Source: Escherichia coli (GTDB taxonomy: Bacteria > Pseudomonadota > Gammaproteobacteria > Enterobacterales > Enterobacteriaceae). From it: 64,000 nucleotides of DNA. Positions 6,480-6,690 of this stretch are shown here, piece after piece. The translations under genes were made by a program, and so were the position numbers. How positions within the stretch are numbered: the first letter of the stretch is position 1; each line of letters begins with the position of its first letter. Where the stretch lies: NCBI RefSeq assembly GCF_003334385.1, contig NZ_QOWN01000008.1. One strand, 5' to 3'. Below the pieces are notes generated by a model. It worked only from the letters and a program-made list of their open reading frames with translations, was not told where the DNA came from and made no database searches.

Positions 6480-6690
6480 AGATGCCGGATGCGGCGTAAA
6501 CGCCTTATCCGGCCTACGGCTCGGTTTGTAGGCCTGATAAGACGCGCCAGCGTCGCATCAGGCTCCGGGTGCCGGATGCAGCGTGAACGCCTTATCCGGC
6601 CTACGGCTCGGATTTGTAGGCCTGATAAGACGCGCCAGCGTCGCATCAGGCACAGGATGCGGCGTAAAATGCCTTATCCGGCATTAAACT
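6480..6690. repeat. REP/BIME cluster (about five REP units in alternating orientation) in the nrdA-nrdB intergenic region
   Basis: Repeated units gccggatgcggcgtaaacgccttatccggcctacg and inverse gtaggcctgataagacgcgccagcgtcgcatcaggc, twice each, plus a fifth partial unit at about 6655-6688. Confidence 0.8.

Follow-up and report, generated by a model that had tools for sequence, protein, structure and literature searches.

REPs are defined as palindromes of the y, z1 or z2 type that are 30-40 nt long, carry a conserved GTAG foot and have a mismatch in the stem (Ton-Hoang 2012). They are combined into two kinds of composite elements, namely BIME-1, in which z1 and y occur as a single copy with a long IHF-binding linker, and BIME-2, in which z2 and y stand in inverse orientation, are tandemly repeated over short linkers and differ in copy number from strain to strain (Ton-Hoang 2012). 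A closely comparable described system is REP325, the yjdM-yjdN BIME-2 (also the naRNA4 locus), which belongs to the same repeat family as the array studied here and likewise lies within an operon between co-directional genes. REP325 has been reported to stabilize the upstream mRNA and to act as an attenuator that is partly Rho-dependent, and REP-containing tandem gene pairs show a raised ratio of upstream to downstream expression (median log ratio 0.96 vs -0.09), with a wide and context-dependent variance among REP loci (Harris et al., 2026 REP325 preprint). That preprint does not mention nrdAB. The nrdA-nrdB site has a literature of its own: “nrdA>-nrdB>” is entered as a BIME-2 in Table DS3 of Sutormin 2019, where Topo-Seq places gyrase cleavage sites at it under ciprofloxacin (Cfx, 2 sites), rifampicin plus ciprofloxacin (RifCfx, 3 sites) and oxolinic acid (Oxo, 3 sites), with 0 under microcin B17 (Micro), and 2 gyrase cuts had been described there before (Espeli & Boccard 1997). 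REPs located no more than 15 nt from a stop codon are reported to impede terminating ribosomes (Liang, Rudd, Deutscher 2015), and nrdAB is cited among the cases already described of such a REP, with an effect on translation. As detailed below, the array between nrdA and nrdB is real but ordinary, having been already catalogued and experimentally studied at nrdAB. The 1984 operon sequence paper by Carlson and colleagues is said to have noted REPs in the nrdAB intercistronic region, and the original REP paper reportedly noted them between nrdA and nrdB as well. The current version of the RefSeq record of MG1655 has no repeat_region feature at this spacer, and nrdA is not among the entries of the RepRanger supplements.

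We analyzed a 64-kb stretch of E. coli DNA (hereafter the window), of which positions 3324-8824 correspond to MG1655 2,344,000-2,349,500 and are identical to it except at 3882 (A vs G, upstream of nrdA) and 8347 (T vs C, in inaA); the window is K-12-like, yet not MG1655-identical. The class Ia ribonucleotide reductase alpha subunit gene nrdA (4189-6474, + strand; NCBIfam equivalog NF006578, 1644 bits over residues 1-761 of 761) ends in a TGA stop at 6472-6474. It is followed by nrdB (6708-7838, +), which codes for the beta subunit (NCBIfam equivalog NF006576, 808 bits over residues 1-376 of 376), and by yfaE (7838-8092, +; a full-length NCBIfam equivalog match). Both nrdA and nrdB are named as conditionally essential genes in a CRISPRi preprint. 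The ORF bounds of the two genes delimit an intercistronic spacer of 233 bp (6475-6707, +), the length given in the original prediction, and the interval 6480-6690 proposed there encloses the whole array (6484-6682), which sits within the nrdAB-yfaE operon on the mRNA strand. A probable nrdB ribosome-binding site, AGGA (6697-6700, +), can be recognized from the sequence 7 nt 5′ of the ATG, and AGGA is present upstream of nrdB in every E. coli allele that we compared. Two further observations concern the rest of the window. A single degenerate REP of the form GTTGTAG TGCCAGATACAACGCTTATGCGTCTTATCTGGC CTACAAC (8098-8143, +) lies at the operon's 3′ end, 5 nt beyond the stop of yfaE and in the gap between yfaE and inaA, which are convergent; the Rfam naRNA4 model matches it weakly (26.7 bits), and Sutormin Table DS3 lists a 35-bp BIME-2 interval at an offset matching it. 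At some distance, the Rfam nuoG RNA (RF01748) matches 59495-59537 on the minus strand (50.3 bits vs a gathering score of 33).

Through a search for inverted and direct repeats combined with a REP regular expression, we recovered five REP palindromes in the spacer in the order Y-Z2-Y-Z2-Y′, as had been predicted for a five-unit array of alternating orientation, with the qualification that the fifth unit is degenerate and partial. The regular expression, which allows a variable loop, matches nothing else in the 64 kb, and 50 shuffled versions of the window returned 0 matches. The units were typed with the y and z2 consensus strings. The first 9 nt of the spacer, TATTGAGAT (6475-6483), separate the nrdA stop from unit 1 (6484-6517, +), a Y unit made of GCCGGATGCGGCGTAAACGCCTTATCCGGC (6484-6513) and a CTAC tail (6514-6517), with a predicted hairpin of -21.3 kcal/mol. 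A 10-nt tail-to-tail linker, GGCTCGGTTT (6518-6527), leads to unit 2 (6528-6563, -; -22.8 kcal/mol), a Z2 unit that reads GCCTGATGCGACGCTGGCGCGTCTTATCAGGCCTAC on the minus strand; its palindrome (6532-6563, -) is GCCTGATGCGACGCTGGCGCGTCTTATCAGGC on that strand, and its foot appears as GTAG at 6528-6531 on the plus strand. After a 7-nt head-to-head linker, TCCGGGT (6564-6570), comes the second Y, unit 3 (6571-6604, +; -18.2 kcal/mol), which consists of GCCGGATGCAGCGTGAACGCCTTATCCGGC (6571-6600) and CTAC (6601-6604) and is followed by an 11-nt tail-to-tail linker, GGCTCGGATTT (6605-6615). Unit 4 (6616-6651, -; -21.9 kcal/mol) repeats the Z2 sequence of unit 2, with GTAG at 6616-6619 and the remainder at 6620-6651. 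It abuts, with a linker of 0 nt, the degenerate Y of unit 5, ACAGGATGCGGCGTAAAATGCCTTATCCGGC (6652-6682, +; -13.6 kcal/mol), which has the head ACAGGATGCGGCG in place of GCCGGATGCGGCG and no CTAC tail. The linkers thus run 10, 7, 11 and 0 nt, and GTAG/CTAC feet are seen on units 1-4 only. The REP units occupy 171 of the 233 nt (73%) and the array span 199 nt (85%).

The locus has the features by which REPs and BIME-2 are recognized. Its units are imperfect palindromes of 30-32 nt whose arms are 79-86% complementary, with an internal mismatch or bulge in the predicted hairpins; they carry the GTAG/CTAC foot and belong to a high-copy extragenic family, the spacer query described below finding a median of at least 33 matching places per E. 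coli genome. Heads of the y type, GCCGGATG, on the plus strand alternate with heads of the z type, GCCTGATG, of 32-nt palindromes on the minus strand; unit 2 shows the GCCTGAT that is described as a z-type head, and TGCC|TGAT is the corresponding z-type feature (Ton-Hoang 2012). The composition is tandem, with a period of 87-88 nt, 1.9 copies plus an extra REP and linkers of 7, 10 and 11 nt (Tandem Repeats Finder: period 87, 1.9 copies, 96% matches, score 315), and its copy number differs between strains, E. coli genomes having alleles of five, three and one unit. Compared with the BIME-2 type nothing essential differs, the peculiarities being confined to the last unit, a degenerate Y with neither a CTAC foot nor a linker to unit 4; compared with REP325, which has six Y-Z2 repeats, the array has 2.5 and is flanked by essential genes. 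BIME-1 (also RIB or RIP; Y and Z1 with a long L linker and IHF) shares with it an extragenic pair of inverted REPs, but the z units at nrdA-nrdB are of the longer Z2 type, unlike Z1, and we rejected this class on the 7-11-nt linkers, the tandem repetition and the lack of a match to the IHF consensus WATCAANNNNTTR in the spacer. In all likelihood, the element is the BIME-2 already described for the nrdAB-yfaE operon of E. coli K-12, with a probable role at the RNA level as a structured intercistronic element.

At that level, the transcript of 6465-6720 is predicted to fold with -118.4 kcal/mol (z = -6.6), a stability that none of 200 shuffles reached. Taken singly, the units give four strong hairpins (-18 to -23 kcal/mol) and one weak one (unit 5), and a Y-Z2 pair has an alternative fold as one long hairpin of -48.1 kcal/mol. 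The start of unit 1, 9 nt past the nrdA stop, places it within the class of REPs no more than 15 nt from a stop codon.

With a 533-bp query that has the spacer at its centre, we matched the junction between nrdA and nrdB in every one of 5,426 complete E. coli genomes, and the spacer between them is markedly polymorphic. Besides the 233-bp, five-REP spacer of K-12, there is a 241-bp spacer in E. coli B that has five REPs and an 8-bp duplication, CTACGGCT, in a linker, and a 226-bp spacer in O157:H7, again with five REPs, in which the head of unit 3 resembles that of unit 5 and the head-to-head linker is absent. In the E. coli B strain C3029 (L003:351-591), the tandem duplication of CTACGGCT is seen in the second tail-to-tail linker and spans a CTAC foot. 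Shorter alleles comprise one of 145 bp with three REPs in the arrangement U1-U2-U5 (L002), one of 189 bp with four REPs that combine Y-like units with a shorter GCCGGATGCGCTTCGCTTATCCGGC type (L005; strains 536 and NRG 857C have matches with a 489-bp span, as for this allele) and one of 65 bp whose only REP joins the head of U1 to the tail of U5 (L006). An 88-bp allele (e.g., strain L725, L007:351-438) has 0 REPs and instead a palindrome of ~55 nt, CCCCTCTCCCCTTGCGGGAGAGGGTTAGGGTGAGGGG, a dispersed repeat that occupies 15 places per genome in the median and at most 29, and of which the 64-kb window has no copy. We take this palindrome to be BoxC-like on the strength of its size and copy number, rather than from an alignment to the published consensus. 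BoxC has been described as a 56-bp element with about 22-32 copies. This palindrome takes the place of the REPs in the nrdA-nrdB spacer of 31% of E. coli genomes, and it also occurs in that spacer in several other genera; it forms a GC-rich hairpin, and in sequence it has no relation to REP. Among 59 genomes sampled at even spacing, we counted 26 five-unit, 11 three-unit, three 189-bp, one 65-bp and 18 88-bp alleles; the frequencies of the REP-bearing classes are estimates from this sample, as BLAST coverage cannot separate the 5-, 3- and 1-unit alleles, whereas the 88-bp allele was counted directly in 1,684 of 5,426 genomes (31%).

Since 31% of the genomes are REP-free at the site and others have one, three or four REPs, no particular REP number is essential. 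The series of five, three and one unit is as expected from unequal exchange of 87-88-bp units, and the distance from the nrdA stop to the first REP is 9 nt in all the REP-bearing E. coli alleles compared. The anticipated hotspot for rearrangement is thus borne out by alleles with 0, 1, 3, 4 or 5 REPs and by the 8-bp linker duplication of E. coli B, and the proposed comparison between strains shows that REP copy number at nrdA-nrdB does vary across E. coli genomes.

Beyond E. coli, we scanned species-representative genomes by exact pattern, using a degenerate nrdB start, and obtained 120 loci, from which 91 Enterobacterales spacers of 42-240 bp were extracted. A stable predicted hairpin is found in 91 of 91, and in 76 of these a hairpin of -14 kcal/mol or lower starts no more than 15 nt past the nrdA stop, compared with 7.75 on average and never more than 13 in shuffles; the 91 spacers come from related genomes and hence are not independent observations. 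Across genera these hairpins are not mutually homologous, and the informative point is that unrelated hairpin families recur at one position. Terminator-like hairpins, in which a GC stem is followed by a T run, are displayed by 22 of the 26 spacers that do not exceed 70 bp vs 7 of 65 longer ones (e.g., in Kosakonia, Atlantibacter, Cedecea, Buttiauxella and Serratia), and in the short spacers (42-70 bp) they sit 2-13 nt past the nrdA stop; loci L009, L099, L097, L072, L066 and L060 are among the short terminator-like spacers. A tail-to-tail pair of genus-specific REPs is featured by Klebsiella, Enterobacter, Citrobacter, Raoultella and Salmonella arizonae, and BoxC-like palindromes are found in Pluralibacter, some Buttiauxella, Pseudocitrobacter and E. 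cloacae. Within Escherichia, E. albertii has five Y/Z2 REPs and two further lineages have three and one.

The opposite strand of the spacer carries yoaM, an antisense small ORF of 11 codons (6674-6709, -; MG1655 annotation b4779) that overlaps the nrdB start codon. A yoaM-lacZ fusion is translated, and an antisense start site is cited 174 nt upstream of the codon at which yoaM starts (Weaver et al.). The last codons of yoaM and its TAA stop lie within the 3′ arm of REP unit 5; a REP therefore supplies the stop codon of this ORF. Its length follows the allele, the Y/Z2 alleles giving 11 codons, the 189-bp allele five and the 88-bp allele 44, and the peptide is therefore not conserved within E. 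coli. The motif TGgTAATCT (6898-6890, -), near the antisense start region at about 6883-6900, resembles an extended -10 element. A transcript starting at about 6883-6900 on the minus strand would enter the minus strand of the BIME-2, the strand that scores best with the naRNA4 model.

This minus-strand match raises the possibility that the array encodes a small RNA of the naRNA4 kind, which would organize the nucleoid together with HU. The Rfam model RF02564 matches 6531-6601 (-) with 76.4 bits, above its gathering score of 59.5 (with four weaker overlapping matches), and minus-strand transcription might reach the array from the antisense start mapped ~174 nt upstream of yoaM. However, the model was built on one REP325 BIME-2 unit and simply recognizes a Y-Z2 BIME-2 unit; its best match here is, in distinction to REP325, antisense to the operon mRNA, whereas the plus-strand matches (41.4 and 34.3 bits) fall under the threshold, and the nucleoid role is disputed for REP325 itself (REP325 preprint). 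Accordingly, we read the match as recognition of a DNA repeat family and not as evidence for a small-RNA gene, and regard such a gene as highly improbable here. Nearly as improbable is a reading in which an internal promoter or intrinsic terminator would let nrdB be transcribed as a unit of its own. A terminator-like hairpin with a T run does exist in related species whose spacers are short (the 22 of 26 spacers noted above), but consensus scans of 6475-6707 returned no promoter-like and no terminator-like site, and no T run was seen directly 3′ of any of the five K-12 hairpins, on which grounds we rejected this reading for the K-12 spacer. Confusion with a CRISPR-like array, against which the original prediction had cautioned, is a fair concern given regular repeats of ~30 nt that recur about every 44 nt (88 nt for a pair). 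The anatomy of alternating repeats with short, repeated gaps nonetheless led us to reject it: adjacent repeats are in opposite orientation, the “spacers” measure only 0 to 11 nt and hardly differ from one period to the next, the repeats belong to a high-copy genomic family present at tens of places per genome, and the location is inside an operon for an essential enzyme. A CRISPR-like origin is so improbable as to be negligible.

A weightier alternative holds that the REPs are neutral selfish DNA, lodged in a permissive intercistronic gap and drifting in copy number while having no effect on nrdAB expression that is under selection. Extreme polymorphism within a single species (0, 1, 3, 4 and 5 REPs; spacers from 65 to 241 bp), the non-REP allele in 1,684 of 5,426 genomes and the status of REPs as substrates of a dedicated transposase-like enzyme (Ton-Hoang 2012) are all in keeping with this. 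Nevertheless, drift alone would be hard-pressed to place a strong predicted hairpin beside the nrdA stop in Enterobacterales spacers out of unrelated families; a translation effect of the nrdAB REP has been reported (Liang, Rudd, Deutscher 2015), and gyrase cuts the nrdA-nrdB site in vivo (Sutormin 2019). We consider neutrality rather unlikely on balance. We also offer, with due tentativeness and as a possibility that falls well short of even confidence, a reading in which a strong stem-loop starting within ~15 nt of the nrdA stop would be selected across Enterobacterales, the natural E. coli alleles would be cis-regulatory variants setting the NrdA:NrdB ratio of an essential enzyme, and the array would also form the 3′ region of the antisense yoaM transcript.

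For the BIME-2 as a structured intercistronic element, a course of events can be proposed that joins these observations to what is described for other REPs. REPs are dispersed by the REP-associated transposase (RAYT, TnpA_REP), and arrays of this kind expand and contract through recombination between the 87-88-bp repeat units. Transcribed on the plus strand as part of the polycistronic mRNA, the array is predicted to fold into its four strong hairpins and one weak hairpin, which may act in three ways. A terminating ribosome would have to melt the hairpin that starts 9 nt past the nrdA UGA, potentially leading to slower termination and a lower output of NrdA, as has been reported for the transcript with the nrdAB REP. 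By analogy with other REPs, the hairpins might also stop 3′-to-5′ exonucleases and so protect the nrdA-containing RNA, and, again by analogy, they could bring about a partial, Rho-assisted attenuation of read-through into nrdB. While the anatomy, family membership and polymorphism of the array are direct observations, the exonuclease block and the Rho attenuation at nrdAB are in this way inferred. At the DNA level, the array is in addition a site of binding and cleavage by DNA gyrase, the cuts being those of the literature. Stalling would lower the output of NrdA while RNA protection would raise it, so that NrdA:NrdB could shift either way. The idea that arrays of this kind stabilize upstream mRNA and modulate the relative expression of the two cistrons, with which the locus had been flagged, belongs to general REP knowledge; it is consistent with the work on REP325 and with the translation effect reported for the nrdAB REP.

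The angle that is new here is only mildly so, and lies in the turnover of unrelated palindromes at a conserved site beside the nrdA stop and in the allelic series that results. If selection for a stem-loop at this site were indeed at work, the slot would be one filled interchangeably by a terminator-like hairpin, genus-specific REP pairs, BoxC-like palindromes or a BIME-2. In the genomes surveyed, a single essential operon offers a natural allelic series with a terminator-like hairpin, a BoxC-like palindrome or one, three, four or five REPs, and nrdAB is a convenient locus at which to measure how intercistronic palindromes tune two subunits that must assemble together.
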